Shown: piece by piece, positions 1 to 60,972 of the stretch
Layout of the letters: every line of letters starts with the position of its first letter
How positions within the stretch are numbered: position 1 is the stretch's first letter
Virus record (IMG/VR): IMGVR_UViG_3300045988_176357
Location: 64,001 to 128,000 of that record
Direction: 5' to 3' (one strand)
Length of the DNA stretch: 64,000 nt
Origin: a virus
Position numbers and translations under genes: made by a program
The notes under the pieces: model-generated
Database searches by the model: none
What the model saw: only the letters and a program-made list of their open reading frames with translations
Told to the model about the DNA's origin: nothing

Positions 1-897
1 GGCTGTGACAGCAACGGCAGCGAAGCTATGTACAAGGTAAGGAACGTTGTTCCCAGAGTGCCTGACAAAAAGAGCAAGTTCCGCAAGATCATACTCCAGT
101 CCGGCAGAACACTCATCACATCACCGTGCCACAAGTGGTACATATACAAAGACGACAAGTTCAACCTTGTTCCTGCTTCGTAGCTCAAACAGGGCATGCT
201 TGTTCCAAGAACAGTGTTCCAGACTGTACCTGTAAGGAGTGCAACTGTAGCAGGCAAGCCTGTCACAAGAGAGATAGCAGTCCTTATGGGAAGACTTTGC
301 GCCTCTTTGTAGGTAGTGGGAACAACTGTCAGGTTCTCTTTCGTTCGCGACAGGAACCCTGAAACAGACCAGAGACAGGACATCACAGACGCTCTTGCAC
401 AGCTCGGTGTTGTGAACTACACGATATACACGCACAAATAGCAGACCTGGTGCAACATCAAGGACTGCGTCTTCAGGGACTGGATTGCGTAGAACATCGG
501 TCGCGATTAGCAGCACAAACGCATACCGAAAAGCATGCTCTCACTCGACAGAGGCTATACGAGCATCTTCCTCGATTCCTTCTTCAAGACTCTGGATACA
601 GTCGCATAGGACATCACAGGTGACAACTGGCTGCTCAGGCTTCCCAATCCCACTGTGCGCGACGGTGTTGCGTTCATGCTCACGAAGATCGACACCGATA
701 CCAATTTCAGAGACGCAGTGCTTCCTGATCACAGAATCCACAGAGCACTGCACTTGCTTCCCATACAGAGAGGCAAGCACGATGTCATCCTGTAGCCCAT
801 TGTCAGCATAGAGGAAATGCCGACACCTGGAATGATGATCGACATCGACTGTGACGACAACGTGTACGCAGTTGCGAACGGCATCATCACACATAAC
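1..897 (+). mobile_element. Intein in RpoB (5'-partial); C-terminal splice junction ...VYAVANGIITHN|S at 895-900
   Basis: Block F/G-like DIDCDDNVYAVANGIITHN is followed by Ser and then rpoB extein resumes (SKYGTQAVPLQQRQA). The insertion lies just before the conserved QRQA region. N-terminal boundary is outside the window. Confidence 0.6.
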
Positions 898-3800
898 AGC
901 AAGTACGGAACACAGGCAGTCCCTCTCCAGTAGCGTTAGGCTCCTTTTGTTCGCGCACTTGACTAGCAGTCCGGATAGGACATGCCTACGAGACTCGGAA
1001 GACTCCTCGGCACACAGTGGGCATAGAAGCCAGGTATGGTGAAAGCTGTTCGCAAGGACAGAATCGACATGCTGTACGACGACGGCACGAAGGGATCAGT
1101 GTATCTGTACGACAACTTCCCTGCCAATGCGAAGGGCTGGCTGACCAACTACGTGAAGGTCAAGGCCGGTGACAAGGTTGCTAAGGGGCAGCTGCTGGCG
1201 TCTTCCAACTACACTGACGACAACGGCGTTGCAGCTACAGGCAGGAACCTGCGTGTAGGCTACATGAGCTATCATGGCGCGACGTATGAGGATGCCTGTG
1301 CACTGTCGTAGTCGGCTGCGAAGAAGATGGGCTACACGATCATGTACAAGACAGGCATGGACAAGGACAAGTCCATCCGTACGTCCAAGCAGCTGTACAA
1401 CACCTGGAAGCCAGGACAGTACACAAAGTAGCAGCTGTAGAAGCTGGACGATTTCGGCGTGGTCAAGCCGGGCACTGTTTTGCAACCTGGCGACCCGATG
1501 ATCCTTGGTATCCGAACTACTGAGCCCTCGCCCGGCACACTTGGCAAGAGGATCCTCACCGATGTTACCTAGACATGGTAGCACAGCACACCGGGCACAG
1601 TCACGGACGTGACGAATACCAAGAGCGGCATCAAGGTGTACGCTACCGTCAGCAAGCCACTGTAGGTAGGTGACAAGATGTGCTACGATGAGTAGACGTA
1701 GGTACTGACAGCTGATGGCTGGAAGCGTTTTGCTCAACTCACATTGCATGACAAAGTGTACACGCTCGATCCTGATTCCGATACCATATAGCTGCAGCAC
1801 CCTGTGATGGTACACAGATACAGACATAAGGATCCGATGTACAAGCTCTGCACAAGAGACATCGACCTTATGGTCACTCCCAACCACAGGAACCTTGTCA
1901 GGATACATGCCGCACAGGGACCTGCCAAGTATCGGCTGGTGCAGGCAAGTGAGCATTATGGCGAGCTGCTGTAGATGCGTACAGGTGCGGAAGGTGCTCG
2001 CCGGGATGTGCCCGTGAACTACGCTGCGGACGACGTGTAGCAGTGGGTCGCCTACGACGGCTACGTGTACTGTGCCACTGTGTAGAAGTACCATACGCTG
2101 TACGTGCGCAGGAACGGCAAGGCAGTATGGTCAGGCAACTCTGGCTTCTAGGGCTCCAAAGGCACGGTCGCACAGGTCATCCCTGACGACAAGATGCCGA
2201 GGGACTCGCAGGGCAGGCCGCTGTAGCTGCTGTTCGACCCGCTTGGAATCATCAGTCGCACAAATCCCTCGCAGCTCATGCAGGCAGGACTCGGCAAAGT
2301 GGCAGCCAAGACAGGCAAGCCCATAGTGATGCCTCAGTTCATGCCCAAGGGACAATCAAGGCTCAAGTATGTCAAGGACCTCATGAAGAAGAACAATGTT
2401 CCATGGTCCTAGGACGTGTACGATCCGTAGTCAGGGCGCACAATCAAGAACGTCTTCACAGGCGTCGCCTACTACATGCCTCTCAAGCACCTTGCATAGT
2501 CCAAGATGAGTGCACGAGGCACTGAAGGGTACGATGCATCAGGTGTGCCGAAGTCCGGTGGTGAGCATGGAAGCAAGAAAATAGGACAGCTGTAGAGCAG
2601 CGCTCTGGTCGGACACGACGCCTTCGACTTCCTCACTCAGGACGCCAAGCTCATACGCGGCCAGTCCAACGCCGACTTCTGGCGCTCCATTCGCACAGGC
2701 CAGATACCTGTCGTCCCGGGCTAGCCTCTCGTGCACAAGAAGTTCTTCGCGCACCTGCAGGCTTCTGGACTCAACGTCCGCAGATCCAAGTAGGGCGTCT
2801 CTCTGTTCGCACTCTCCACAAAGGACGTGGACGACATGGCAGGCAACAGATAGCTCAAGTCAACAGACACATACGAGCAGAAGAACTTCAGACCCATCGA
2901 CGGCGGTCTCTTCGGACAGGACATCTTCGGACCCGACGGCATGAACTGGGGCTACATTCAGCTCGACAGCCCTCTCCCGAACCCCGTCATGTAGTAGCCG
3001 CTTGCGCGTCTCCTGCGCATGTCCGACAAGGACTTCCAGGCAGTCGCTCAGGGCAGAGCCACGGTCAATGGCATCTCCAACGCAACATAGATGAAACAGG
3101 CGCTGGCAAAGATCGACCTGTAGAAGGAAGCCCAGCAGTCGCTCGTATAGCTCAAGGATGCACGGCCCTCAAAGAAGGACGCTGCGCTGAAGCGCTATGT
3201 AGCCATTGCCAAGATGCGCGACAACGGTGTTCCTCCTCAGGACTACATGCTGGACAGAATACCGGTGCTGCCTCCCAAGTTCCGCCCGATCACACAGCAC
3301 GGCGGTCTCACAATGGTAGCAGACAGCAACTACCTGTATGCGCAGCTGCTGAACGCAAGGGACGACCTGCGCTAGGCACAGAAAGAAGGACTGCCCGCTG
3401 AGTACATCACCGACGCGAACGCGAAGCTTTACACGAAGTGGAAGGAACTGGTGGGGCTGTACGACCCATAGGACGTGAAGCTGAAGAACAAGTCGGTGAA
3501 GGGCCTGCTGAAGTGGGCCCTCGGCACGAGTCCCAAGCGCTCGGCGTTCGCCACGAAGGTGCTGGGGTCGACGGTGGACACTGTGGGACGCGGAGTCATT
3601 GTTCCCAGTACTAAATTACGATTGAATGAGATCGGGATGCCGGTGGACATGGCGTGGGATGTATATGCGCCTTTTGTGGTGCGCAAGCTGGTGCAGCGGA
3701 ACTACACACCTGTGGACGCCATGAAGATGGTCAAGTAGCGTGTGCCTGCGGCGTTCGATGCACTGCAGCAGGCGGTGAGCGAGCGGCCTGTGGTCATGAA

Positions 3801-5889
3801 CCGCGCTCCCTCGCTGCACAAGCTCAGTCTCATGGGCTTCAATGTGAGGCTGACAAGCGGCAAAGCTATCAAGATCAACCCCTCAATTGTTGTCCCGTAC
3901 GGAGCTGACTTTGACGGAGACTCATGTAAGTCGTTGATAATCATATGGTTACAACAAAAATAGGGCTCTCAGGTAGCAAAAAAGATATATAGAGGCAGTT
4001 AGAATTGGCACTTGACAAATGCGAAATCTGGTGTATATTACCTTCATAATGACAAGGAGCCGCAGCTCCAGAACCAACAATAGAAAGAAGGTAATACAAT
4101 GATTTCCAAAAATGAAAAAGTCTCAGTGATGCCGTATCTTATGGAACTCTCTGAAGTTCCTGTCATCAAAGGATCGGAAGTTGCCAAGTCGCCTACTGTC
4201 ACCGAATGGGATGTTGAGGAAGGCACTTTGGTGAACACCATAGACCCTGCTACAGGTGAGATTGTGTTTGCTCCCATGACAAAGGTATCCAGGCACACAA
4301 ACCTGAAAATGTTCGACGTGAAGTTCGGTATCAGCGGAGCCTATGAGCACATGTCCACAGTGTCTGAGGATCACAGCTTGATCACATATAACAGCACATC
4401 TATGGAACTGGAAAAGACCAGACCTGAAGAAGCCCTCGGCGCATGTGTTCCGATGACCAGATTCAACTGGTGCAACAAGGTTAACGATGAGCAGGGATGT
4501 GCAACTCATATCAACTTCCCGTCTGGTAACTACTCACTGTCCTACGATATGGGTGTCTTCTTTGGCCTCATGGTCGGTGACGGTTGGGTAGCCAGCACAA
4601 GTGCCAACACAAAGGTGGCCCATATCGCTTGCTGCGAAGAGTCCCTGCAGAACTACATATTGGAACTGACAAAGAGCGCGTCTATGCCGTTCACCAAACA
4701 GGCGGCACTATTCAGCTATGCAGCGGATGAACAGAGATTCAGCCAGCGAGACAAGCAGAGATTCACTATCTACATGGATAACGAAGATAAGGCGTTCCTT
4801 GAGAAGCTCATAGGTCATGGTGCCGAGAACAAACATATCCCCTATAAGAGCTTCATGGGAAGCATAGCACACATGATTGGCGTCCTTATGGGTCTGCTTG
4901 CTACAGATGGCGCGGTATCACATACGCCTGGAAGCGGAAACAGAAAGTCAGCTAAGAAAGCTATCATTTACCACACTGTAAGTCCTACACTGAGAGATGG
5001 AGTGCAGGATTTGGCATGCAGGCTTGGTATAAAGACAAGTGTCACGACATACACTGGCACATCTTCTGGAAACACAGCATATGCAATTGTGTTCTCACTT
5101 GAGGACTTTGCTAGACTGTACGATAAGAATCCGACAAGATGTGTGATACCTGTCAGCTATAAGCAGGAAGCTCTTATGCGTATCGTTAACGATGTGCATG
5201 AGAACAATAAAGCGTCGTGCAAGACCACCGTCACTTCTTATGATATAGTGCCGTTCCCTCGCGGACTGTTCTGCGAGTTCAGCTGGGCAAAGATTGTCGA
5301 CATCTCAAGAGACAGTGTCATAGCTGCACGTACCAAAGGCTTCATAAAGAGAAGCGTCGCAAAGCGTATTGCAGATGCTCTTGAGCGTCGCGACTGGTCT
5401 ATCTACAAAGATCCTGCATACCTCAAGAAAGCTGACCAGACGCATCGCACTCCCGCCCAGGCCAAGGCACTTGTGGACAAGTGGATCGCCATGGTACGCA
5501 ACGACGACATCGGCTGGGAAGTCGTGACAGACGTGACTCCGTCCACATGCACTGAGGGATGGGACTGCACAGTGCCTGGACCGTACACCTTCTCGCTCAG
5601 CACAGGAACTATTGTGCAGGACACCGTGAACCTGCACGTGCCTGTTTCACAGGCCGGTATCCGCGACGTGCGCTAGAAGATGATGCCCGAGCACAATCTG
5701 ATCTCAGCGAGAAAGCGCAAGATATTATACGCACCGTAGAAAGCTTATACGCAGGGACTCTATGTAGCCACAAGAATGGGTGAGGCCAAGGACGTGAAGA
5801 CCTTCAACACGCTGCAGGAAGCCAAAGACGCCTACAGAAAAGGCCTCATCGACGTGGATACACCGATACTGATCAAGGAGAAGCGATGA
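1..5889 (+). CDS. rpoB-rpoC: RNA polymerase beta (C-terminal two-thirds, 5'-partial) fused in frame to beta' N-terminal half; TAG read as sense; ends at TGA 5887-5889
   Basis: Frame 1 has no TAA/TGA from nt 1 to 5886 but about 60 in-frame TAGs. Translation matches bacterial RpoB: SKYGTQAVPLQ-Q-R-Q-APFVRA (QRQA motif, both Q encoded by TAG), MSYHGATYEDA (MPWNGYNFEDS), KPLQVGDKM...SGFQGSKGTVAQV (GDKMAGRHGNKGV), LLFDPLGIISRTNPSQLMQAGLG, AYYMPLKHLAQSKMSARG, RPIDGGLFGQDIFGP. It continues without a stop into beta': IPVLPPKFRPI, NRAPSLHKLS, PYGADFDGD, and after the insertion LHVPVSQAGIRDVR...GLYVATRM...AYRKGLIDVDTPILIKEKR. Confidence 0.85.
1681..2139 (+). mobile_element. Mini-intein (153 aa, no endonuclease domain) in RpoB between GDKM and SGFQGSKG
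   Basis: Starts CYDEQTQVLTADGWKRF (Hint block A); block B DLMVTPNHRNLV; block F/G GYVYCATVQKYHTLYVRRNGKAVWSGN followed by +1 Ser. Flanking exteins reconstitute the RpoB motif GDKM|SGFQGSKG. Confidence 0.8.
3922..5622 (+). mobile_element. In-frame intein-like insertion with double LAGLIDADG homing-endonuclease motifs in beta' at the NADFDGD catalytic loop; exact splice junctions uncertain
   Basis: Same frame as flanking rpoC when the three TAGs at 3961, 4000 and 4081 are read through. Hint block B-like TVSEDHSLIT. LAGLIDADG-like motifs GLMVGDGWVAS and MGLLATDGAVS. Extein resumes TVNLHVPVSQ, matching QMAVHVPLS after DGD. Junction residues (S or C at the start, D or N at the end) are non-canonical. 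Confidence 0.55.
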
Positions 5890-6218
5890 CATACGCACAG
5901 GCATACGGACTCACCAAGCAGGCTAACACATAGCAGACTGCGGATAGCGCATTGCAGGATGCCTTCAACCTCGGCGGCCGAATGGGAGGCGCTGTCGGTG
6001 GAGGCACTGCAGGACTTGTAGGCGGAGGTCTTGCAGGCGCCGCGCTTGGGTACAATTTGCCTGACTGGTTCAGCAAGGCACAGAAAGCGGGCAAGCTGAA
6101 CAAGATTCTGGCTGCACTGGGCGGCGGTGTGCTCGGCGCAGGTGCAGGTCTGGTTGCCGGTGCTCATGGCGGTCACTGGATGGGCGGCCGCATCATGGAC
6201 GCAATCTCGAAGCAGTAA
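5886..6218 (+). CDS. Gly/Ala-rich glycine-zipper small protein; ATG overlaps rpoC-N stop (ATGA)
   Basis: ORF MTYAQAYGLTKQANTQQTADSALQDAFNLGGRMGGAVGGGTAGLVGGGLAGAALGYNL...ALGGGVLGAGAGLVAGAHGG, two TAGs, TAA stop. Confidence 0.5.
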
Positions 6219-6278
6219 CGTGCAGCTGGGCCGTACAACTAAGAATCGAAGAACATATACCTAGCAGTTGATGGCATA

Positions 6279-6971
6279 ATGCGTACCTACACACAGATAT
6301 ACAAGCAAGCCAGAGATCTGAGAGATGCAGCAAAAGACGCCCGATGGCGTGCTTAGCTGAAGCACTTTGTGGATACCCTTCCGGATCTGTCACTTATGCA
6401 TCCTGATCTGACTCCGCAGCAGTACGCCGCCAAGGTGAAAGCTTCTCCGCCAGTTCCTTTACAGCCTTTCTCAGCTAAAGTTCTGCGTCCCTATTCCAGT
6501 GCTGCCGGTACTTACAAGCAGAACTTACAGAATGCAGCCATAAATGCCCTTGCGCAGACATAGTCCAGTAATAACAGGTTCGCCGTATCTGCTCCCGATA
6601 GGAAAGGCAGACAAGCTGTTGGAACATACCAGATACGTAGGCCAGCATTGGAACAGCTGAAGAAATGGAAGCTTGTTAAGCCGCATGTTACACAATAGGA
6701 TATTCTGTATGATGCATAGCTGAACAAGACACTAGGACCGCAGTACTTTCAGCGTATAAGTAAAGGCAGCCCATCTCCAGCTGTAGCCTATGCAAGATAC
6801 TTCAGAGGGCCTAATGCATATAAGAATGCTCTGAACAGAGGCTAGCTGCCAAAGGGAACCACGGAATAGGCATGGGCAAATAAGTTCAAGTAGGTACAGA
6901 GATACATGCAGAACTATAACAGGTAGCTGAAGCGCATTCCGGCAACCTCGAAAGGACCTGTGCAGCGATGA
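6279..6971 (+). CDS. Hypothetical protein, weak lysozyme / lytic-transglycosylase-like motifs
   Basis: Frame 0 open 6243-6971 with 9 TAGs. GTYQIRRPALEQL...YDAQLNKTLGPQYF...AVAYARYFRGPNAYKNAL. No catalytic Glu identified. Confidence 0.3.
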
Positions 6972-8272
6972 TCCCAGGGCTCCCCGACAGGCGCAACTAC
7001 GGTGACCTCGCGTCGCTGAAGCCATAGCAGACGTACACATTGCTGCGGCAGCTGCACAATGCACAGCGTGCCGGACGGCACGTGGACTTCCGCATAGGTT
7101 CTCCGTAGCTTGGTCTGTTCAGCTGGGCAGCACCTAAAGACCTTCCGACGCAGGCAGGCCAGAAACGGCTCCTCATATCGCAGCCTCTGCACACGTACGC
7201 ATACAAGGACTTCACAGGTCCCATCTATTCAGCTTATGGGCGTGGCACTGTATAGAAGCTTTAGTAGACGCCTATAGTCATCCTGCAGAACAGCCCTGAC
7301 AAGATCAAGTTCACACGCGCCGACAAGCGCAACGCGCCGGTGTACACAATGATCCGCACGCGCAACGGCAACTGGCTCACGTCCATCGTCAGCGACGACG
7401 CGCCGCCTGTCATCAGGCAGTACGACAAGTAGCACTTCAAAAGCATCTCACTGCAGCAGGCAGCCAATCTACTGGACCTTGGCGCTCAGGCCTATCCGAA
7501 GGCGGACGGCACAGGAGCACTCGCACAGGTGCGCAAGAACAGCATATAGGTGTACGGGATCCGCAAGGACAAGAACGGAAATCTGATACGATACACAGAC
7601 CACATAGGCGGACTCAGGGACATGAAGATCCCTCCGCAGCTTGTAGGCAAGGTATTCCGTGTAGAGGTCACAGGTTAGCAGAATGGCAGACCCATACAGC
7701 CCAATACTCTCTCAGGACTGCTCAATGCTTCTCTGCAGAGGAACATACAGGCACGCAAAGACAATAACATCAATCTGTTCATGTATGCACTTGCTCTTGC
7801 AGACAAGCAGGATCAATATGACAAACAGCAAGTTAACGAGCTTGTCTCCCAGCTGCAGTCTCCGAAGCTGCGTACATTGCCGAAGGTAACAGCACAGTAG
7901 TTCCAGGATCAGCTCAGACAGATGCGTGAGGGTACACATCCCATAACTCAGTAGGGCTTCATAATCCATCCCAAAGGTGGAAGACCGCTCAAAGCTAAAT
8001 TGCTGCAGGATGCAGATGTCATAGTACGTGATATATTCCCTGCATAGACACAGGATGGACAACGCGCAGGAGGATTCACGTACAGCTTGCCTGGACAGTA
8101 GACTGTTGTAGGCAGAGTAGGCACCGGTTTTACACATCAGCAGCTGCAGGATATGCTGCAGCATCCATAGCAATACACAGGCAGGACAGCAAAGATACAT
8201 GCGATGTCTCAGTATCCTTCAGGTGCATACAGAGCTCCTGCCTTCATATCTTTCAGAGCGGAAGGAGATTAA
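6968..8272 (+). CDS. ATP-dependent ligase-like nucleotidyltransferase
   Basis: Frame 2, ATGA overlap with upstream stop, about 20 TAGs. Motif I AYPKADGTGA (KxDG); NINLFMYALALAD; QGFIIHPKGG (motif IV-like); RPLKAKLL (motif V-like); PAFISFRAEGD (motif VI-like). Confidence 0.5.
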
Positions 8273-8617
8273 ATGCCCATTCATCAGAACGAAGACGGTA
8301 CCTGGCAGTGGGGCAAGTCAGGTAAGAAATACAAGAACAAGCAGGACGCAATAAAACAGATGCAGGCTATCTTCGCTTCCGGTTACAGAGAACCTGGGCA
8401 ACGCAAGAAAGCCGGGCTTACCTACATGTCTGCGTACCTGATTAAAAGAGCTGGTGGCGGTTCCTTCCAGGACTACATGAACTCCAATATTCCTGTGGAA
8501 AATGTGGAGCAGAGTCCGCAAAACAATGTGAAACAGGAACCTGAGAAACCTGCACAACAGCCGCCGACCCAGCAGCTTAACAGGCTTACGGGAATCTCTT
8601 TCTAGGAAATCAAATAA
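8273..8617 (+). CDS. Small hypothetical protein (MPIHQNEDGTWQWGKSGKKYKNKQDAIKQMQAIFASGY...)
   Basis: ATG immediately after ligase TAA; one TAG read-through at 8606 extends it to TAA 8615-8617. Confidence 0.5.
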
Positions 8618-8630
8618 GGACCTTATTAAT

Positions 8631-8969
8631 ATGACTTACATCGAAGCCTACAATATGTATAAGCAGGCTGCTCAGGTGAATGCTCCTGCTGCACATCCTT
8701 CTGTAACACCATCCGTTGCCACGAAACCTGCATTTGGTCAGTCGTATGTTAACGGCGGTTCAAAAATGCCTGACCTGCCGGGCACACGTACAGCAGTCAA
8801 AGGTGATACACCGTATCTGTACTGGACGCAGCTCGGCGGGAATAAACATATGCCGTGGCAAAAATGGCTGGGTCAGTTTCTGAAGGATAATCAGCTGAAA
8901 GCGGACGCCAAAGGCAGAGTTCTCCTGAAGCCAGGTCAGAACTATATGCTTGGCCCTGGAATTGAATAA
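8631..8969 (+). CDS. Hypothetical protein (112 aa)
   Basis: Standard ORF without TAG, TAA stop. Confidence 0.45.
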   Translation: MTYIEAYNMYKQAAQVNAPAAHPSVTPSVATKPAFGQSYVNGGSKMPDLPGTRTAVKGDTPYLYWTQLGGNKHMPWQKWLGQFLKDNQLKADAKGRVLLKPGQNYMLGPGIE

Positions 8970-8980
8970 TTGGAGTGACT

Positions 8981-9832
8981 ATGAGCTTTAAAGACATTTT
9001 CAAAGATATGAACAAGCAGGCGGCTTCGATGCTGACACCTTAGGCCATGCAGGCAGCGGCTGTGCCGCCTGAAGGTACTCCGCCTGCAGGTGCACCTATG
9101 GGAGGTGCTCCGATGGATCCGTCTATGATGGGTGCTCCGGCCGGTATGCCTGTGGATCCGGCGATGGCAGGCGCTGCTCCTGCAGGTGCTCCAATGGATC
9201 CGGCAATGATGGGTGGAGCTCCTATGGGGCCTGGACCTGATCCTGCCGGTGCGCCTGGAATGCCTGGAGCATCCGGAGCGTGGATGACTGATCCGATGTT
9301 CCTTGACTTCCTTATGCAGTCAGGTTTCCAGATCGATCAGGTTGGCAACGTAATCGATCCTAATGGACAGCCTATGGATCCTGCTATAATGGATCAGCTC
9401 TACGCTTAGTTTCAGGCACAGATGGGTGGAGCACAGCCAGACGTACAGGGAGCTCCCGCTGAAGGTGCACCTGCATAGCAGCCGCCGATGGAGCTGCCTT
9501 AGGAAGTGCTCAATCAGGTTGCAGGAATTGTGCAGGATGTTATCGACAGCTCTCTGGATGAGAAACTTTCCGCACTGGAGAAGAAGATATCTGCTTTCGC
9601 ATAGAAGCTCGATACCTTGAAGACCATGCTGGACGATATCCTTATCGGTAACACCAACCAGGATTCGCTTAACAAGTCCTAGGAAGCTTCCATTGACTCA
9701 CAGCTGTAGAAAGATCTGCGTTCAGCACAGCAGGTGGATGTGCAGTAGCCTGGAGGAACAGAACAGCTGCTTGCACCTGCTGCGGCTGTTCCTGCGTCCG
9801 GCAGCATATTGTAGCTTATGAGAGGTGCTTGA
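8981..9832 (+). CDS. Pro/Ala/Met/Gly tandem-repeat protein with coiled-coil-like C-terminus
   Basis: Frame 2 checked codon by codon. Repeats GAPMGGAPMDPSMMGAPAGMPVDPAMAGAAPAGAPMDPAMMGGAPMGPGPDPAGAPGMPGASGAWM, 14 TAGs, TGA stop. Confidence 0.6.
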
Positions 9833-10998
9833 TGGAAGTGTCCAGAAACATGAAGATTCTCGCAAAGCTTGCAAGCATAAATAAAGAAGCGCAGGGCAAT
9901 CCGATGCTCGTGTCTTCCCTTATCGGTGCCGGTGCTGGAGGACTTGCAGGAGACCTCACTTCACAGCTGCTGTGGAAGAAGCCGACTAAGACGCAGCGGA
10001 TTCTGTCTGCATTGGTCGGCGCCGGTCTTGGTGCAGGAACTGGCGCTGCTGTTACAGGTTCATTCGGACACAAAGCTGTATAGAATATTCCTGCGAGATT
10101 GCAGTCTATGTATTAGAATGCTATCGGCACAGTGTCAGGCAAATTGCCCTCCAAAGAGGACTTTGCATCCATGTCTCCTACAGCGAAAGCTATGTATGGC
10201 AGCACCAATACAGGAGATAAAGCTGCTGACAGACTAGGATCTGTTGTCAACACTCTGAAAAAGTCAGTAGTCGGATAGAATGACAAAGGCAGCGGTGTTA
10301 TAATTCCAGCACAGTTGGCAGCAGGAGGTATTGGCGGAGTCTTCGGCTGGAAAGGTGCTGTGTAGGCCCTTAACAGGCAGGGCAGACGAATACAGCTTAT
10401 AAAGGCTCTGGAAGATAAAGCAGGTGCTAATCCTGCGTTGTGGCGAGCTGCAGATATCTTGAAGATTTTCAAAATAAAAGGCGGCAATCCTGTTACTAAA
10501 CTTATCGATTAGATACAGGAAAGCTCTAAGCTTACAACGTCACCTCGTGCATATAAAAATAACCTTGCCAGTATAGTTCGGAATTTCCATAAGAGGAATG
10601 AAGCCAGTAAGGCTGCAGGTATGGGAGCTATAAGTGATACAATCCGGCAACGGTATTATGGAAAGTACAGGAACAAAGATCTTGATGCCTTCAGGCTGAA
10701 GGGCAGACAGAATGCCACAGCATTAGAGACCTTGTTCGGTTTGTCGAAACGCAGAGCCGGGCAGGTATTCGACAACACAGGTATCAAGACCGGTATATCC
10801 GCTGACGAAGCTGCCAAACTCCGGAATATGGTGACAAATCGTCCTCTTGGAAAGATGAAAGGTGCGGCTGGACTGCTGGCAGGTATCTTGTCTGCTGCTG
10901 CGTCGGCAGGTGGAGCCGGATATATAGGCAACGCACTTGCAGGTAACAATGCACGGTATCAGCAGGCGCTGACAAACCTGTAGAATGCTTATAAGTAA
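9832..10998 (+). CDS. Gly/Ala-rich hydrophobic (glycine-zipper) protein, possibly membrane or virion associated
   Basis: Frame 1 checked 9832-10998. Start ATG overlaps upstream TGA (TGATG). Segments LVSSLIGAGAGGLAG, ILSALVGAGLGAGTGAAV, AAGLLAGILSAAASAGGAGYIG. 8 TAGs, TAA stop. Confidence 0.55.
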
Positions 10999-13319
10999 CA
11001 GGTGCTGAATTGGCTGTCACCACATTAGGCAGATAGGTAATCAAACAAGCGCTTCCTTAGAAGTACAGGAGCTTCGTTGACTAGCCCCTCACAAAGGCTC
11101 GCCAATAGAAGCTCACTACGCAGCTTGCCAAGGACAATCCATAGGCTTACATAGACATCCTGCAGAAGCTGAATGCCATCGCGTAGTCGACTGTATCTAC
11201 GTACGGCAAAGACACTACCATCACTCTGGATGACATAGATGCTGGAGAGAATGTGCGCAAGATGCATGCTAAGCTCCAGTAGCTGATACGTACTGTTGTG
11301 AACAGGAAAGATCTCACTCCGTAGCAGAAGTAGCAGAAGGTCATCTAGCTGGGTTACAAGTACACTGCACTGATGAAGGACCTTGGATTAAAGGATGCTC
11401 AGTAGCGTCGTACAGGTATTGCAAATCAGATTGCATCTGGATCCCGTGGCAACCCTGTACAGCTTATGCAGCTTCTTGTCGGCGACATGCAGATGCGTGA
11501 TGCCGCCAACAGGGACATCCCTTATCTTGCTACTATGCCGTATGTGGACGGTGATTCGCCTATGTCCTACTGGGCATCGAGCATGTCCGGTAGAAAATCA
11601 ACTTACGATACGCAGGCTGCTACAGGCATGGCCGGTTACCTGAACAAACAGGCAACCAATGTTATTCAGGCAACACCTATAGCTATGCGAGACTGCGGCA
11701 CTACCAATACAGGTGTGCCGGTATCAGCTACAGATCCTTAGAATGTAGGCTCCATACTGCTGCGCCCATGGAAGAACCATCCTGCAGGAACACCTGTCAC
11801 GTAGGAGATGCTGGACTAGGCTTAGTAGGGTGACGAGATTGTGATCCGCAGCCCGAACACATGCAAGGCTCACAACGGTGTGTGCGCTATGTGCTCAGGC
11901 ATCCAGGAAAACGGCAAGCTGCCTGCTGTAGGAAGCTACGTGGCACTGAATGCCATGAAGTCCTTCATCTAGCCGCTTACGCAGGCCGGTGTAAGCTGTC
12001 TGCATCCTGACACAAAGGTAAGTCTGGCTGAAGGTGGATATAAAAGAATAGCAGATATACAGATAGGCGATACTGTAATAGGTTGCGACATAGCAGGTAC
12101 AACTACACCTGTAAAGGTCACCAATGTATTCCATAATGGAATTCAGCCTGTATACAGAACTGTATCTGTTACATAGTCTGGTAAGCACTTGTAGCTCTTA
12201 TCCACACTTACACATAAATGCCTTATGCTGATCTAGGATGCACAAGTTCCAGCACTGCTGCCTATAGGGACACAGGCTAAGAAACGCTATATAGTACTGT
12301 CAGATAGGTCTGAGTAGCAAAAAGCTTAGATAATACAGCAGACATTCGTAGGCGATATATAGACCATAGATATCTAGGTTGACCATCCTGATCATCTGTT
12401 CCAACTTGTTGATTATCAAGTGGTAGCAAATTCGAAGCATGGTTCTGGTATGGGCGGCAAAAAGAGCTAGGACCCAGACGGCTAGGACCAGCCTACAGGG
12501 TTCGACTCCATAGCGCGCATGCTCCTTGTGCCCTCTACATTCCCTGGTGGCGCAGTGCTCTCTCAGGTCGATGGTCGCGTGTCATCTGTACGTCCTGCTC
12601 CGCAGGGAGGCAACTACATTACAGTCGGCACCAATACGGTATATGCGCCACGCGTACGTACAGTAACAGTAAAGCCCGGCGACATCGTGTAGGCTGGAGA
12701 CACCCTTACCAATGGCGTGCCTAATCCCATGTAGGTAGTCAAATACAAAGGTATCGGCTAGGGCAGACATTACTTCACGAACAAGCTTTTCGAGCTGCTT
12801 CCGAAATCCGGCGCAGGCACAGCAAGACGTAATGTGTAGCAGTTCGCCCGCGCCCTCATCAACAAGGTTCGCATAACATCCGACCAGGGTTTCGGCGGCT
12901 ATTATCCTGGCGACATTGCAGATTACGACGATATAGCGTAGAAATGGAGACCCAGAGAGGACAGCAAGATGCTGAACCTCAAGGAAGCCACAGGAAAGTA
13001 CCTGTAGGAGCCAGCACTGTATTACAGCATAGGAACAAGAATAACACCCAAGGTAGCCAAGAAACTGCAACAGTACGGTTACCAGCAGGTGAATACCAAT
13101 TAGAATCCTCCGCCGTTCTAGGCGAAGTTCGTAAGCTCCAAAGCGTTCTCTACTACGTAGAGGCGCTGGTTGCCCAGACTTAACGGAGAACGGCTTAAAG
13201 AGGCTATCTTCGACGCTGCAAGAACTGGAATAACTGACAGTTATGACAGCCCTTCATTCGTCGACAAGCTTATCATAGGCCCCTATAATCCGGCAAACAT
13301 TAAACCAGCAGGAATATGA
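10995..13319 (+). CDS. rpoC: RNA polymerase beta' C-terminal half (rpoC2-like); start codon uncertain (no ATG near ORF opening; TTG at 11010 possible)
   Basis: Frame 0 open 10995-13316 with TGA stop. AELAVTTLGRQVIKQALP (TTVGRAILW), GSRGNPVQLMQLLVGDMQMRDAANRDIPYLATMPYVDGDSPMSYWASSMSGRKSTYDTQAATGMAGYLNKQATNVIQATPIAMRDCGT (ADSGARGS...DCGT region), CAMCSGIQENGKLPAVGSYVALNAM (CAHCYGRDLARGH), GDTLTNGVPNPMQVV, C-terminal LKEAIFDAARTGITDSYDSPSFVDKLIIGPYNPANI. Confidence 0.8.
11997..12431 (+). mobile_element. Mini-intein (145 aa) in beta' C-terminal half after the GEPGTQLT-equivalent motif
   Basis: CLHPDTKVSLAEGGYKRIADIQIGDTVIG (block A), LLSTLTHKCLML (block B), TIDIQVDHPDHLFQLVDYQVVAN|S (block F/G, +1 Ser). 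Exteins FIQPLTQAGVS | SKHGSGMGG. Confidence 0.8.
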
Positions 13320-14791: not shown

Positions 14792-14856
14792 AAGGTAACC
14801 AGCGACGGACAGTAGATTTCCATATCCGGTGCCAAATCCAATCCGGCTGACAGAAT

Positions 14857-15375
14857 GCAGGTGAAAGAAGCTGTGCTGCACCTTGTGCGTGACTACGGAC
14901 TCGCTCCTCTGGATGCAAAGGCGATTGTCAAGAAAGCCGGTGCAGGCAGCATACTGAATCCTGTATCAACTTCGTACAGATTATTCAAATCTGCCGCGTA
15001 GATGGTTTAGAGCGACATGTGGAAACCTGCCGACATCGGCTACTCTGAAGTACAGAATGTTCCTCCGCAGGTGACACAGGAAGATATTCAAGGCAAGGCA
15101 CTGCAGGACGAGCGCTAGATGCAGACTGTGCAGCGTGCGGCTGAAGCAGGTGTGAAGTAGGTGTTCGATACACAGACACTTAAGATGCTTGTGCAGGCTG
15201 CTGATCCGCATGAATAGGTACTGTAGGCGCTGCCGGACTTCATGAACACGCTCGATAAGCTGTGCAAGCTGCTGTTCCTTTTCAGATGCCACTTGAGCGA
15301 TATGTAGAAGAAGTACGGAGCTGTGAAGCTCAGATCACTTTAGTTGTCCATCAAGAACACGCTGAATGATCTGTC
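14857..15375 (+). CDS. Hypothetical protein (about 172 aa); frame overlaps the end of the upstream ORF
   Basis: Frame 1 open 14701-15375; first ATG at 14857; TGA stop. Confidence 0.4.
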
Positions 15376-15465
15376 ATAGCTCACGATTTTCCTCAAGCTC
15401 AGAGGTCTCAACAATGGAGAAGCTCCTGATGCAGGAGATCTGCAGACAGGAACTATGATGAACTG

Positions 15466-16350
15466 ATGCCTGTATCCAACTAGAGCGCACCATTCAAGAG
15501 GAGTCCTGTCTTTTAGCGGGACTCCTTTTTACAACCGCCCGACTGGCGATGGCAGGAAGCCAAGCAAATAGTCAGGGCGCAGCTGACAGACACCAACTAT
15601 ACACCTTCTTCCGACCCGATAATTCTGTATGCTGCTCGTATACAGAGAGCATGTCGGAATACAGATACGAGAAAGTTCGTACAGGCAAAGATGCCCGATG
15701 CCTGGCAGGTGTTCACTCTTGGGACATTTGACAACTCGTCACAGCTCAGAGCCTAGGTGGAAGCATGTCTTATCTATGGCCTGACTCCTTAGAAGACTTC
15801 TTAGAAACTGAAATGGCTGACCCCTGTACAGGTAAGACTGTACTCTGACTTGTTCTGTGACCTCACAGGTGTTCAGGCTATATCAGGGTGGTTTTAGCAA
15901 ATGCTGCTGCAGCCAGCCAGAGTCGGTAAATCTATGAACCTGTTCAGGGCCAGAGCGCTCGCACATTACCACTCCTTATAGGCAGCCCTGCACTCTCTGC
16001 GTTTCGGAAACTCTGGAAAGAGTGCCAAGTAGGCTATGGACGCCATGTGGAGAAACTGCAGAAATACGCAGGTTTTTGACTACATAGCCAAGGAGCTTAA
16101 CGTACCTATCTAGGTGTACACCCAGATGATGTAGCAGGCGGTAAAGAATCGGTAGGATCAGGCATTTATGCTGCAGCAGAAATAGGGTGGAGGCTAGTCG
16201 CAGGCTATCATAGATGCGGCGAATATTCTCAACTCCAGTATAAGAGGATTCAGCAGAGCTTAGATACAGCTTACAACATAGCAGCAGAAAGCCGGTGTTG
16301 ACTTCACTACGCAGTACACTCAGTTTATAAAACATAAATCAGAGGCTTAA
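15466..16350 (+). CDS. Hypothetical protein (about 295 aa)
   Basis: Frame 1 open 15430-16350, 20 TAGs, TAA stop. Confidence 0.4.
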
Positions 16351-16353
16351 TAT

Positions 16354-18087
16354 ATGGGATAGTTAAAGAAACTGGATCAGCTCACAGAATACCAGCTGAC
16401 CAATGCTATTGAGAAGGCGGCTACACTGGCCCTCGGCTCAGACAAGGACAGAAGCTAGATTCTGGCATAGCAGCTTGATCTTGCTGACGTCCCGAAGAAG
16501 CTCACAAAACTTGCGGCACAGGCATTCAATAGAAGGCTTGCTGTAGTCACGCTAGGAAAACGCAATGATTAGCACAAGGCGTAGGACTTCCCGCTTGCCG
16601 ACATCGAAAAGGTAGCTTCACTGCGTGGTGTGTAGCAGCTCGATAAGGTTGCCTCTGTCGGTACTGAGTTTGAGTTCAGAATCAAGGAGCCTGAAAAACC
16701 TGCAATGGTCAAAGCTGCGTCCTTCAAGGAACCACAGCCTGAACCGACTATCGGACAGCTGATGCAGAAGTTGTAGCACATGCTGTAGAAGGAAACCAAA
16801 GCATTCTAGGCGGACTATTACAATCTGATCAATTAGAAGAAAGATCTGGATCGTATGGTCAAGAAAGCCTCTGACATGCTGCGGGATGAGACTAAGCTTT
16901 CCAGGTTGATGTCTACAGTATATGGTGATACATACACTGAACTGTTTAAAGACAAGCTCCCTGAATAGTCTCTGAAGAAATCGGCTGCCTATGCTGTGCT
17001 TCCTGCATCTGCAACTGTTGAGTACGTGTAGAAGACTATACAGCAGGCATAGAATGTGCGATGGCGCCAGAAGTCTCTGTAGAAGAAAGCTCAGGCTCTG
17101 GATGTCTTCTGCACGGAAGCTGTAAAGACATAGAATGCTGTAAGGCAGGGGCTGCTCAGCGGGCTTATTAAAAATGCAGATGGGTATACGGTTGTCAAGG
17201 ATGTCCTTGCAAACATGTTGTCCGTACCTCTGATGGCAGGTATTAAAGGCGGTCAGGGTGCCTTGTAGACGGCAGGAAGCATACTTCGTTCCGGTACAGG
17301 CTCTCAGAGATATGCTGTAAATCCTTAGTCTGCTATTACAGGTGCTCTGCTGAATGCGGACAGATATGACGACAAGGTGATGCGCCTTGCTGACATGCTT
17401 GCAGACAGGGACTTCAAAGACTTCCCTGCACAGTAGATATAGAAAGCTGTGTAGGATGTCATAGTTTAGAACCCCTCATATCTGTCTCCGAGATTCAAGC
17501 AACACCTTAAAACAGCTGTTGCAGCTAGACTGATGCAGGGGGGCAAGACCAATCAGGCATCTCAGGCAGCTTAGGCCGCTACTGTAAAATCTATTACTTC
17601 AGCCGACAGGTAGCGTGCACAGGCTGCAGCTGTCAATGCAGTTAAAGGCATGTCTCCTGTGTAGACTTAGGGAAGTGTAGCTGACCTTGTTCCTGACTTG
17701 TCTAAAGCAATGTAGAGACTGAACCTTGGAAACACTGTATTTGTCGGAAATCTTGGACAGAACTGGTAGCAGTTCTCCAGAGATATCGGCTAGGCCAGAA
17801 AGCAGAACTAGGCTAATAAGTAGAAAGATGCTGAAGCCAGACTCCAGGCAATCAAGAACTACATGTCCAACAGGCAGAAAGCTATCAAGTACCTGGCCAA
17901 TAAAGCAGCTGCAAATCCGAAGCTCCAGAAACAGCTTGGCATTCCCAAAAGGACAGGAAAGAACATCAAAGGACTTACTGATCTGCGACTGTAGAATAAA
18001 CAACCTGCAGTCAATTTGGCTACAGCACAACTTGCAGCTGCCAGTGCACCTCAGCAGTAGGCGCTCTATGCTGAGATTGTCTAGTAA
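16354..18087 (+). CDS. Large hypothetical Lys/Gln/Ala-rich protein (about 577 aa), possible virion internal or morphogenesis protein
   Basis: Frame 1 continuous 16354-18087 (start and end checked, middle read by eye); many TAGs; TAA stop. Confidence 0.4.
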
Positions 18088-18098
18088 GAGGTAATGCA

Positions 18099-20030
18099 AT
18101 GATACAGAAAAGAATCGTCCCTTAGGCTTCCGATTTCGGAGGATAGGAACCTGTACAGATACTTAAAGTCAGTTCCAAAGGGTTGGATAAGTCTGCATCC
18201 ATGCAGAAACGTGCAGCAGCTTTCGACGACATCATAGCAGATCTGAAGCCGATGCCCAAGAAAGCGTACCTGCACGTTATCACTACTGGAGCGATGTAGC
18301 ACTTCGGTATCAACAGGAACTGCTTCGTAGCAGGTACTATGGTTGTCACCTGGAATGGCACGAAAGCAATCTAGCACATTCGTGTGGGTGATCTTGTGCA
18401 GAGCGGCAGCGGTTAGATGCGTAGGGTTAACGACACATCTGCCAGGTGGTACAAAGGTCAGCTTGTAAAACTGACAGCAAAGAACGGATAGATCGTTGTC
18501 ACCATGACATAGGATCATCCGGTACTTGTTCTCGATGCCAGCTAGAAGTGGGGCGACTTTGTTTCTGCCAAGGATATCAAGCCTGGAGCTAAGTTGCTGG
18601 TACCTGACGACAAAGTAACATAGACCGCACTGAAATACAATATAACTGTAGACAAGGTGTAGTTCACTTATACAGAGTCAACTGTCGTCTATGACCTGAA
18701 GATCGAAGTCGAACGTACCTTCTGCGTTCCTTTTGTCGTGCACAACTGCGACGGCTGGAATTAGGATGCTTTTGTGTACAGACCTCCGATGCCTAAAAAT
18801 GCATCCTGCAAGTAGATTCAGCTCGATGGCGGACTCAGGAAGTACCATTCGACATACCTGGACAAGGCAGCTGTATATCAGGAGCACCAGACTGACAAGT
18901 AGAAGTCAGGATAGGTGAAAGCAGCTGTGTACAATGATAAGATGCACAGAGGCTAGTTGCTCATTGAAGTGGACACTGACAAGTGGGCATAGCGGCTGAA
19001 CAAGAAGGCGAACGGCCAGGACATATTCCTTTCGGTTGGAGCTTCGCTGAGAACCGATTATTGCACCGCCTGCGGGAATGCAGCGCACACGCTCGACTAG
19101 CACTGTTAGCACATCAAGAAACATGCAGGAATGGTGCTGTCAGACGGTACCAAGATCGGCATGATAAACGATGCTCCCAAGTTCTATGACATCTCAGGAG
19201 TGAACGTACCTGCAGACCAGATGGCATTCGTGCTGCGCAAGGTAGCATCAGGCGACAGTGCAGCCAAGGCCATTGAAGCTGCGAGGTTCCAGGCAACAAG
19301 ACCTCCTATGTCATTGTCAAAGGCTGCAAGACTTCTCGGTAAACTCGCGTAGCTGTAGAAATGCATTCAGTGTGAAGCACAGGACGATCCGATCTTTGCT
19401 GACTCTCCGGAAGCTGTGGAAGATTTTCTAAAAGCGGTATAGAATTACGACGCCGACTAGATCATCGATCAGTGCAACCGCAAGGCAATCCTTCTGTCAC
19501 CGAAAATGCTCTTTAAGATCCTCGGCAAGGAATCTGATAATCAGTAGCTGTTCAATACCTTTGCCTAGAGCTGCCCTTGCAGTGGTCAGCACCTCATGTA
19601 GGATATGCAGCAGGACTAGGAATTCAAGCCTATGCTCAGCGACGGCAGTTTCGATTCTGTGCTTCCTGTAGATCTCACTTTATAGGATGTTCTTAAACAG
19701 TTCATACCTTAGTTTGGTGTCAGCAGGCCTGCTCTGAACGGCAAAGCTATACGAATATAGATAACATCCGCCTAGCCTTAGAAAGATATGCAGCAGTTCA
19801 AAGACAAACTGCAGGACAGCATGCAGGACTCAGAATCGAGTTAGGACGATGATTCCGGTGATCGACAGAATGAGGATTCAGACAAAGAGGAGGATATGTA
19901 GAAGAAGGCGTCTCTCGTTGGAGACCAGTTCAGAAGAACATATGCCAGATACGTTCTGAGTTTTGCTTAGCGTAACAGTTAGGACACCTGCATGTTAGCC
20001 ATGCAGAAGCTCGCCAGATATAAGTAACGT
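18099..20030 (+). CDS. Hypothetical protein carrying a mini-intein; 3' end approximate
   Basis: Frame 0 checked 18099-19352. Contains HFGINRN|CFVAGTMVVTWNGTKAIQHIRVGDLV...TMTQDHPVLV...VVYDLKIEVERTFCVPFVVHN|CDGWN. Confidence 0.5.
18321..18746 (+). mobile_element. Mini-intein (142 aa) in hypothetical protein
   Basis: Hint block A CFVAGTMVVTWNGTKAIQHIRVGDLV; block B TMTQDHPVLVLD; block F/G TVVYDLKIEVERTFCVPFVVHN followed by +1 Cys. Confidence 0.7.
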
Positions 20031-20212
20031 CACTCTCTATGTGAGATAGATAATCCCAACAAAAAGGTAATATACCCATGAGTATGCTTAACAAGAAAGC
20101 CGCTTTTCTCCACGATCTGCTTGTTCAGTCCGGAGCGCTGCACAAAGTTGCAGGCGGCGAATAGATTACAGAGAAGAAGCTCGATGCTCCGCAGCCCACT
20201 ATCGGCGACAAG

Positions 20213-21333: not shown

Positions 21334-21345
21334 AGGAGCGCACAA

Positions 21346-21750
21346 TGTCACAGGACTTCCAGAAGATCGCTGAAGAAGCGATTAAACAGTGCGCAGAATA
21401 TGAAGCTCGCATTAACCAGCTCCAGGAACAGATTGCTCTCACCAAGAAGGCAAATCTGGCCGATCCTGAGCTGGTTAAGAAGTCCGTGGAAGCTCTCACT
21501 AAAACAGGAGGTATCACGGCATAGCAGGCAGACGAGACAGCTCAGTTGCTTGCCCACGACCCAAATGCCTCCTTAAGAGCTATTCAGGCTCTGTGCGACC
21601 GCTACACTGACGCAGCTCCCATTGTGAAAAAAGAATCCGATATATAGGGCGGCAGGCTTGTTGATACATTCAATAAGCAGGCATCGGCGGCTCCTGTTGA
21701 AGACGCATACGCTGCAGTTGCCCGTGTCCTCGGACTAAAGATGAATAAAT
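21346..21750 (+). CDS. Small hypothetical protein (about 135 aa)
   Basis: Frame 1 ATG after scaffold stop, 2 TAGs; end approximate. Confidence 0.35.
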
Positions 21751-21763
21751 AAAGGAAACTATT

Positions 21764-22348: not shown

Positions 22349-22404
22349 TCCGCTGTAAGATAAACCAGGGGAGCGTGTCTCCCCGATAACTATAGGAACG
22401 CAAT

Positions 22405-23418: not shown

Positions 23419-23442
23419 TTGAAATCAGGTTGCTGATTATAA

Positions 23443-23472
23443 AAGCCCTCCGTAACAGGAGGGCTTTTTTTA
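23443..23472 (+). terminator. Rho-independent terminator
   Basis: AAAAGCCCTCC-GTAACA-GGAGGGCTTTTTTT downstream of the capsid candidate. Confidence 0.7.
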
Positions 23473-60936: not shown

Positions 60937-60972
60937 AGTAATTCAAGCATAAAACAGAAAGGAAAAACGAAA

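Follow-up and report, generated by a model that had tools for sequence, protein, structure and literature searches.

The present analysis concerns a stretch of 64,000 nucleotides, hereafter the window (positions 64,001 to 128,000 of the IMG/VR virus record IMGVR_UViG_3300045988_176357), in which five insertions identified as inteins occur within about 19 kb, four of them in the genes of a bacterial-type RNA polymerase and the fifth in a structural gene. It is very probable that four of these are class-1 inteins and that the remaining one, which interrupts the catalytic DFDGD loop of the beta' subunit (the DFDGD element), is an intein with dual expression, in a phage that has recoded TAG.

Under this explanation, the late genes of the phage would read TAG as an amino acid and its RNA polymerase genes would have been heavily colonised by inteins, of which the four class-1 elements would be translated within their host proteins and would excise themselves by protein splicing, restoring the conserved catalytic motifs. 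The DFDGD element would follow two routes. Late in infection, the long RNA polymerase messenger RNA would be translated straight through the element, where only TAG codons interrupt the frame, and the element would be spliced out via Ser1, Thr+1 and a C-terminal Asp that cyclises. The second route would be independent: a disordered linker that follows the first strand of the intein would supply a sigma-70-type promoter, a Shine-Dalgarno sequence and an ATG, from which a TAG-free protein of 525 amino acids (aa), composed of the endonuclease and most of the Hint domain, would be produced. This protein could be translated with the standard code and would probably be made at an early stage of infection, when homing would be of benefit. 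In the three relatives that have real stop codons in the linker, the same element would be an atypically split intein with a short N-fragment.

Inteins in the RNA polymerase and structural genes

Long open reading frames (ORFs) are missing from the first 20 kb of the window when it is read with the standard code. When TAG is taken as a sense codon, 51.5 kb of the 64 kb is covered by plus-strand ORFs of 200 aa or longer, in comparison with 7.1 kb under the standard code, and frame 1 is open from 1 to 5889. All five insertions are visible at the coordinates in Table 1 only because TAG is read in this way. A preliminary description of this DNA had placed five insertions at these coordinates, all of which were reproduced here; its reading depends on the recoding of TAG, which it leaves unmentioned. 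It had also named RpoB and the N-terminal part of RpoC as separate hosts, which is correct in that inteins are found in both beta and beta', but these parts are fused in a single ORF (beta-beta'N), and the host of the fifth intein, which it had called a hypothetical protein, is the homolog of a gene annotated in another phage (Table 1).

For comparison, contigs of related phages (L001 to L006 and L008 to L011) were fetched via the relatives of the database protein P0001 (130 member sequences, 22 relatives, contigs of up to 191,943 bp), to which ORF2, the standard-code ORF within the DFDGD element, is an exact match. Salmonella phage Arash was fetched as the closest cultured relative. Inteins make up 52% of the visible part of the beta-beta'N ORF. 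Once spliced, this ORF matches the Pfam families RNA_pol_Rpb2_6 (E = 3e-46), RNA_pol_Rpb1_2 (E = 2e-27) and Rpb1_1, and Arash gp206, an intein-free fused homolog, has 30% identity to it over 99% of the query. The removal of 1681-2139 turns a two-piece match to RNA_pol_Rpb2_6 into a single stretch, and after the removal of 3922-5622, the best Rpb1_2 stretch crosses the DFDGD junction and reaches profile position 162 instead of 146.

The four elements other than the DFDGD element begin with CLHPDT, CYDE, CLHPDT and CFVAG, respectively, with Cys1 in each case, have the block B motifs TSPCH, TPNH, TLTH and TxDH, and end in HN↓S, GN↓S, AN↓S and HN↓C, where the arrow marks the splice junction. The penultimate His is absent from two of the four, which is a known intein variation (PMC4031507). 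The element at site C of rpoB is cut by the edge of the window and can be seen at full length in L001, where it starts with CLHPDTPVLV. Judged by these termini and blocks, 1-897, 1681-2139, 11997-12431 and 18321-18746 are conventional class-1 inteins.

The site C intein scored 39.2 bits against Pfam Intein_splicing (cut-off 35.8) in a scan of the whole ORF, and 32.4-33.9 bits, below the cut-off, when the partial intein was scanned alone, whereas the structural-protein intein exceeded the cut-off of Hint_2 (31-34 bits against 28.4). The beta' C-part mini-intein matched Hint and Hom_end_hint at E = 3e-5. In phmmer searches against solved structures, this same element matched the Mxe GyrA intein (E = 5.5e-4), and the structural-protein intein matched a bacterial intein-like domain (E = 2e-5) and the KlbA intein (E = 3e-4); the AceL NrdHF intein was also found with the inteins of the window (E = 0.08). 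Searches with nine intein queries using phmmer found no further copies elsewhere in the window. Group I and II introns were rejected, as Rfam finds none in the window and the host frames are continuous.

The comparison of filled and empty sites in the aligned relatives is decisive here, and far stronger than these moderate profile scores. For each of the five insertions, one or more homologs lack exactly the inserted segment and have its flanking residues side by side, as an alignment of the exteins with intein-less homologs, a check that the preliminary description had proposed, made clear (Table 1). At the DFDGD site, the empty form is DYDGD↓ALSMYLP in Arash and DFDGDT(V/A)N(V/I)H(V/A)P in the proteins P0025-P0031 (51-58% identity), the latter being exactly the predicted spliced product. 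At site D, located in the motif GDKM↓SGF.GSKG of beta, which is the bacterial GDKMAGRHGNKG motif, L003 has a 359-aa endonuclease-bearing intein nine residues downstream (GDKLSGRYGNKST↓CFQG…WCGN↓CTL), which is non-allelic and lies in the same motif. As the inteins are situated in the Mg-binding DFDGD loop, the GDKM...HGNKG motif and the trigger-loop region, the activity of the polymerase must depend on splicing.

The scattered presence and absence of these predicted inteins among the relatives shows recent mobility. The contig L001 (ENA ERZ28629902 scaffold_1), which has 95-97% DNA identity to the window, differs from it by exact insertions of 450 bp at 2259/2260 (site E, a 150-aa mini-intein) and 1188 bp at 2571/2572 (site F, a 396-aa LAGLIDADG_2 intein), and given that these two sites are filled in a 96%-identical genome and empty in the window, intein gain or loss has been recent. 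The flanks of site F have diverged over approximately 60 nucleotides on each side (33 of 60 positions identical downstream and 50 of 60 upstream, and >93% identity further out), which is the pattern that co-conversion during homing, or escape of the target site, would produce. On the other hand, the flanks of site E, which lacks an endonuclease, are conserved between the window and L001. The active homing that had been proposed from the density of the inteins is in agreement with these observations, as is the identification of the five segments as inteins with the empty sites, with the termini and blocks and with the fold of the DFDGD element described below.

The intein load of L001 is higher still. 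Its single beta-beta'N ORF (1004-11791) has seven inteins, which account for 2,311 of about 3,600 codons (64%), and its RNA polymerase genes have eight when the intein of the beta' C-part is included. Upstream of the region covered by the window, two endonuclease-bearing inteins are located four residues apart (IGSAR↓C...GN↓TAEK↓C...GN↓SPG). Four of the L001 inteins (those of the two upstream sites, D and E) are paralogous, with the pattern CY..T....T..GW ... VYCxTVP.G.V.RRNGK...GN, and one intein family has therefore spread to several sites of this gene. Paralogs of the site D mini-intein of the window are present at three or four other rpoB sites. To our knowledge, the highest count in a single gene has been four, which the seven inteins of the L001 ORF exceed. 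Downstream of its beta-beta'N gene, before the following gene begins, L001 also has an extra segment of 1,145 bp (12128-13272, at 6225/6226 of the window) with a TAG-bearing ORF that is absent from the window.

Table 1. Location of the inteins, their host ORFs and the parts of the DFDGD element in the window, with the occupancy of the intein sites (arrows mark splice junctions)
Feature	Position	Strand	Description	Filled	Empty
Beta-beta'N ORF	1..5889	+	Runs off left window end; C-terminal part of RNA polymerase beta fused to N-terminal part of beta'; 46 TAG
rpoB site C intein	1..897	+	Cut by window edge, last 299 of 333 aa; site RLLMG↓SKYGTQAVPL; end ANGIITHN↓S, Asn codon 895-897	Window, L001, L003, L005	L004, L006, Arash
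rpoB site D mini-intein	1681..2139	+	153 aa; GDKM↓CYDE...WSGN↓SGF; Cys1; block B VTPNH; 6 TAG; empty form GDKM↓SGF	Window, L001, L004	L005, L006, Arash
Site E	2259..2260	+	GIISR↓TNPSQ	L001, L003, L005	Window, L004, L006, Arash
Site F	2571..2572	+	GGEHG↓SKKIG	L001, L005	Window, L003, L004, L006, Arash
DFDGD element	3922..5622	+	567 aa; between last Asp of catalytic DFDGD (beta') and TVNLHVP; DFDGD↓SCKS...IVQD↓TVNLHVP
First-strand (block A-like) segment	3922..3960	+	SCKSLIIIWLQQK, up to first TAG
Promoter-like element	4012..4039	+	TTGACA-16-TATATT, inside intein linker; 11 of 12 consensus positions
Predicted hairpin	4040..4092	+	ACCUUC (4040-4045, directly after -10 box) pairs with Shine-Dalgarno GAAGGU (4087-4092); z = -1.6
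ORF2	4099..5676	+	Standard-code ORF, 525 aa, from ATG to first TAG, 17 codons into C-extein
Two LAGLIDADG motifs	4552..4917	+	GVFFGLMVGDGWV (4552-4590, GDG); IGVLMGLLATDGAV (4876-4917, TDG)
Blocks F and G	5557..5622	+	GWDCTVPGPYTF...STGTIVQD; resembles Ssp DnaB intein C-terminus (match to 1mi8)
Beta' C-part ORF	10995..13319	+	C-terminal part of beta' (Rpb1 domain 5, Rpb1_5); 35 TAG; homolog of Arash gp216
Beta' C-part mini-intein	11997..12431	+	145 aa; trigger-loop region; AGVS↓CLHPDT...VVAN↓SKHG; block B TLTH	Window, L001	L003 (AGVG↓SKHV), L006
Structural-protein ORF	18075..20027	+	Homolog of Arash gp222, annotated 'structural protein'; likely start ATG 18099; 35 TAG
Structural-protein mini-intein	18321..18746	+	142 aa; NRN↓CFVAG...FVVHN↓CDGW; block B TxDH	Window	L003 (NRN↓GDYW), Arash gp222

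Anatomy and proposed expression of the DFDGD element

The DFDGD element starts with Ser, Thr or Cys in all 13 relatives. Some 12 residues of alternating hydrophobic pattern follow, and then a linker of 39-69 codons, predicted to be disordered, after which ORF2 holds the whole of the intein minus the first strand and the linker. The LAGLIDADG motifs noted in the preliminary description were recovered, with LAGLIDADG_3 at 36.9 bits (cut-off 22.5), and the family shows little or no variation at their Gly, Asp and Thr residues. The homing endonuclease is apparently intact. Also conserved are the strand pattern and the block-B His, the C-terminal Gln-Asp, which is invariant in 23 sequences and forms part of an invariant Val-Gln-Asp, and the Thr at +1 (at least 90%).

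The AlphaFold model of the relative P0008, which includes the N-extein, has a mean predicted local distance difference test (pLDDT) score of 71, with values mostly of 73-96 over the intein (in 10-residue blocks), and the top Foldseek matches of the element in the PDB are two endonuclease-bearing inteins, TliVMA (7qss, E = 4.7e-17) and PI-PfuI (1dq3, E = 2.7e-15). By its modelled fold, the DFDGD element is an intein, i.e., a Hint domain with a nested LAGLIDADG endonuclease, albeit an atypical one. The segment following DFDGD in the P0008 model is a strand (pLDDT 63-65) with disordered flanks, which is consistent with strand 1 of the Hint fold. When ORF2 (P0001) is modelled alone, the pLDDT is 80.9, the N-terminus is disordered and no strand precedes residue 28, whereas residues 10-16 of ORF2 form a strand in the contiguous P0008 model. 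The comparison of the N-terminal region of the element with other inteins by hhalign gave a probability of 1.5%.

A number of other structures were considered and rejected. The element is not a class 3 intein, as relatives have Met or Ile in place of the Cys at F:4 (WDCTV) and the first residue is Ser, Thr or Cys throughout; a frameshift behind the unusual start of the insert was discarded because no block A motif is present in the other frames; and no support was obtained for the sequence MISKNEKVSV at the start of ORF2 as a second copy of strand 1 with which the free protein would complete its Hint fold, given that residues 1-9 are disordered and the first strand comes no earlier than residue 28 when ORF2 is modelled alone. 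In L006, the most distant relative, which has an in-frame TGA at intein codon 5, the linker that follows DFDGD (9851-10000) appears to repeat the first 25 or so residues of the intein (CVSA, a stop and ITVTYDFEKAGGKDLLKYL, and then MIYNDRVFILNGNLVKNIHIKDFP at the start of ORF2), which could be a duplication, a decaying element or read-through.

The candidate signals for independent expression are located in the linker. In the nine relatives fetched as DNA, the linkers have a TTGAC(A/T)-N16/17-TA(T/A)A(T/G/A)T element 31-103 nucleotides before the ATG, which is weak in L006, and the ATG is preceded by a purine-rich Shine-Dalgarno-like sequence in all of them, including L006. The site at 4012-4039 is the sole plus-strand match in the 64 kb of the window to the pattern derived from the linkers of the relatives, and it is because this DNA motif is conserved that the linker peptides appear to be similar (NWHLTNAKSGVYY and NWYLTKSKKGVYY). 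A hairpin that pairs the Shine-Dalgarno/ATG region with a 5' arm starting no more than 3 nucleotides from the -10 box is predicted in four of six lineages (the window, L003, L009 and L010), with base pairs that differ by lineage (ACCUUC/GAAGGU, GCCUCC/GGAGGC, AUCUGC/GCAGAU and AUACGUGU/ACACGUAU), and this arrangement is suggestive of a masking arm that only long read-through transcripts would contain.

In its codons, too, ORF2 is suited to expression by itself, with no need for TAG to be suppressed. Counted directly in the window and L001, L003 and L005, the 497-508 intein codons from the ATG of ORF2 include no TAG, and ORF2 must also be TAG-free in L010 and L011, where it was called as one uninterrupted standard-code ORF. 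By comparison, TAG makes up 1.8-4% of the codons in the surrounding exteins and 2.3-4.9% of those in the other four inteins, and TAGs resume 18-23 codons past the C-terminal junction. For the window, the probability of finding none in 508 codons is 7e-8, and given that this avoidance extends across lineages with only 50-67% identity, it reflects selection rather than recent import.

All 13 sequences keep DFDGD and the ORF2 ATG in one reading frame, although their linkers come in nine different lengths; the chance expectation for this, over some ten independent lineages, is roughly (1/3)^9 = 5e-5. Neither TAA nor TGA occurs in ten of the 13 linkers, including that of the window (3922 to 4099). 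In most lineages, then, it is important that the linker be translated, as would be expected of a precursor that splices in cis. The exceptions are the standard-code relatives L004 and L008, with five linker stops each, and L006, with one, in which the gene is therefore split after an N-fragment of 20, 34 and 4 residues, respectively; the two parts of the intein lie on separate ORFs in these three contigs and not in the window.

It is suggested tentatively, with a likelihood that falls a little short of even, that the DFDGD intein has evolved its own signals of transcription and translation, together with the avoidance of the recoded codon, which would allow the endonuclease to be produced early and the precursor to be spliced later, and that the stop-bearing relatives are in transition to a split intein. 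If so, these relatives would represent a stage through which split inteins arise in nature and, as contiguous and split forms occur in one family, the origin of the atypically split inteins becomes testable. An intein with its own promoter, Shine-Dalgarno sequence and ATG, insulated at the codon level from the code switch, would represent a new uncoupling of endonuclease expression from the host gene.

Several points weigh against the overall explanation. The canonical intein blocks that the preliminary description had reported are present in the four class-1 inteins, but the DFDGD element lacks the His-Asn end, having Gln-Asp instead, and it contains the linker with the promoter-like element, Shine-Dalgarno sequence and ATG and is split in some relatives. 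Its C-terminal Asp may result in slow splicing or in cleavage only, although inteins ending in Asp or Gln are a documented functional variant able to splice (PMC4031507). The profile searches that had been proposed as a check gave scores above the cut-offs for LAGLIDADG_3, for Hint_2 and, in the whole ORF only, for Intein_splicing, but the site D and beta' C-part mini-inteins fell below the curated cut-offs of Pfam and NCBIfam (E = 1e-5 to 0.03). The assignment of the first strand rests on AlphaFold output of medium confidence, the promoter-like element is only a match to a consensus, one that is not used by Bacteroidota, and the masking hairpin is weak (z = -1.6 to -3.3 overall, with the window at the weaker end) and was not seen in L005 or L011. 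Finally, the real linker stops of L004, L008 and L006 mean that translation in cis is not universal.

These last observations bear on the possibility that, like its counterparts in L004 and L008, the element of the window functions in split form, in which case a beta-beta'N chain that ends within the linker with a short N-fragment, for example at an inefficiently suppressed TAG, would be spliced in trans with ORF2. Natural atypically split inteins with N-fragments of 15 aa have been found in gut metagenomes (PMC10189870), and the conserved Shine-Dalgarno sequence and ATG, the promoter-like element (found in all but L006), the linker stops and the absence of strand 1 from the model of ORF2 alone are all compatible with this arrangement. 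It is nevertheless unlikely, since the conserved frame and the scarcity of TAA and TGA argue for translation through the linker and, in the window, ORF2 itself stops at the TAG in the C-extein unless this codon is suppressed, in which case the TAGs of the linker would be read too.

It is much less likely that the element no longer splices, with either C-terminal cleavage alone, by Asp cyclisation, or no processing, which would leave beta' in two pieces with the break at DFDGD. Split subunits are known from the RNA polymerases of phages such as phiKZ and AR9, and both the Gln-Asp end and the start codon of ORF2 would fit such a break. This reading does not account for the retention of an N-terminal Ser, Thr or Cys in every relative, nor for the conserved strand pattern, block-B His and Thr at +1; the break would fall directly after the Mg-binding Asp, leaving a tail of 567 or 13-34 aa, and the intein-less relatives are contiguous at DFDGD. 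Least probable of all, and barely tenable, is that the segments are lineage-specific insertions retained in the mature proteins, or that the genes are decaying pseudogenes, for which the sub-threshold profile scores might speak, but which is contradicted by the exact boundaries, where the first residue is Cys or Ser and a final Asn precedes Ser, Thr or Cys, by the insertion in catalytic motifs (GDKM↓AGRHGNKG, DFDGD and the trigger loop), by long ORFs that are intact in several diverged lineages, by the differences in occupancy between 96%-identical genomes and by the fold match to inteins.

Comparison with known inteins and mobile elements

The inteins of the window share with known class-1 inteins (Mxe GyrA, Ssp DnaB, PI-PfuI and TliVMA) their in-frame position at highly conserved sites, their sporadic occurrence among relatives, the Cys or Ser at position 1, the block-B His, the C-terminal Asn followed by Ser, Thr or Cys, and the Hint domain with a nested LAGLIDADG domain. 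They differ from them in that their hosts include the bacterial-type beta and beta' of a phage, in being coded with a reassigned TAG, and in their extreme density, with at least five in 19 kb and seven in one ORF of L001. The new mini-inteins are an experimentally tractable set.

RNA polymerase inteins have been described in archaeal, eukaryotic and giant-virus enzymes (Mja RpoA'/A'' and RPB2/RPA2/RPC2; PMC1635734), and these too are found in the two largest subunits at conserved positions close to the active centre, with several non-allelic sites per gene family. They number at most one or two per gene, unlike the inteins described here, which are found in a phage enzyme of the beta/beta' type. 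The literature search returned these cases only and no report of inteins in a bacterial-type beta/beta' RNA polymerase, which is in line with the rarity that the preliminary description had assumed. It also returned no report of an intein with an internal promoter, ribosome site and start codon.

The DFDGD element resembles the atypically split inteins (PMC10189870) in the position of the break or linker just after the first strand or strands, in its Ser or Thr nucleophiles and in its phage or gut-metagenome origin, and in L004 and L008 the N-fragments of 20 and 34 aa are followed by stops. In contrast to these inteins, the window and most relatives keep both parts in frame and uninterrupted save for TAG, and the C-part retains a full homing endonuclease and ends in Gln-Asp.

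A further parallel is provided by the group I intron endonucleases of phage T4, such as I-TevI, which have a promoter of their own and a ribosome-binding site that is masked in read-through transcripts. The DFDGD element is likewise a gene within a gene, with its own candidate promoter, Shine-Dalgarno sequence and ATG. Four of six lineages have a hairpin by which the Shine-Dalgarno sequence could be masked in long transcripts only. Unlike I-TevI, it is an intein, the codons of which would also be translated within the host protein, and the avoidance of the recoded codon would add a second layer of control.

The crAss-like gut phages recode TAG or TGA in their late genes and have many self-splicing elements, with at most three inteins per genome, and some of their RNA polymerase ORFs are disrupted at DxDxD, with an unexplained mechanism of expression (PMC7886860). 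The phage of the window is similar in being a recoded gut phage with many self-splicing elements and an RNA polymerase interrupted at this motif. It differs in having a baseplate wedge gene and synteny with Arash, and in that the interruption at DFDGD is explained here as an intein, which suggests what to test in the DxDxD-disrupted genes of recoded gut phages (PMC7886860).

The meaning of TAG and the identity of the phage

Known amber reassignments in phages are to Gln (PMC9523058; bioRxiv 10.1101/2021.08.26.457843). In the present genomes, comparison with standard-code homologs indicates that TAG most likely encodes Glu, and not Gln as in genetic code 15, and the letter Q that the preliminary description had assigned to TAG (as in CYDEQTQV) is thus probably wrong. 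The analysis was based on 1-5889, 10995-13319, 18075-20027 and 27908-29678 of the window. Counts over 912 shared extein columns give 54-60 Glu and 24-32 Gln in the standard-code homologs and 12-27 Glu, 28-36 Gln and 22-42 TAG in the recoded genomes, so that Glu plus TAG fits the Glu content of the homologs and Gln plus TAG is approximately twofold too high for TAG to be Gln. Where at least two of the three standard-code references have Glu, the recoded genomes have Glu 46 times, TAG 22, Asp 17 and Gln nine, and where the references have Gln, they have Gln 19 times and TAG not once. The conserved Glu of the GEGG and (Y/F)ED motifs is replaced by TAG, and the log-likelihood favours Glu over Gln by 38 units.

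In an independent set of 48 TAG positions in other proteins compared with Arash, Glu is found at 12 and Asp at 10, and Gln is outside the eight commonest residues. GAA and GAG together make up only 1.0-1.3% of the codons in the TAG-rich genes. Pfam scores obtained with TAG as Glu or as Gln differ by 2-5 bits, in either direction, and no suppressor transfer RNA (tRNA) was found within the window. If TAG is Glu, this is a new phage genetic code, and annotation with code 15 mistranslates these genomes. The junction peptides predicted to be ligated by splicing are GADFDGDTVNLHVPVSQAGIR, VGDKMSGF[E/Q]GSK, AGVSSKHGSGMGGK and NCDGWN[E/Q]DAFVYR, in which Glu and Gln at TAG differ by 0.98 Da.

The source is a tailed gut phage of roughly 190 kb with a myovirus-type baseplate gene, which is syntenic with Arash and has its RNA polymerase genes in the structural block. 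Among the genes of the window are those of a baseplate wedge subunit and of a major head protein, and its gene order is that of Arash gp206, gp216, gp222 and gp226; these same features rule out a crAss-like identity. No match was found between 1-20000 of the window and GenBank phages by megablast, and a scan of IMG/VR with the spliced beta-beta' sequence returned no confirmed relative.

The use of the code is not uniform along the window. Genes in about 20054-24309, 26283-26810 and 59296-64000 have few or no TAGs amid TAG-rich neighbours, among them the genes of the major head protein (22390-23418) and of an acidic scaffold-like protein, as well as the right-end block of the window, which makes the use of the code a mosaic. 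On the minus strand at 26932-27007 there is a tRNA with a CAT anticodon, inside an otherwise plus-strand late region, where it overlaps the start of a plus-strand open frame, and is the sole RNA gene that Rfam finds in the window at gathering thresholds. Finally, among the RNA polymerase and structural genes, the ORF at 6920-8272 has a KxDG-type motif (PKADGTG) and, at its C-terminus, a PHROG match to ATP-dependent DNA ligase (E = 3e-12), and could be a ligase or a capping-type nucleotidyltransferase.

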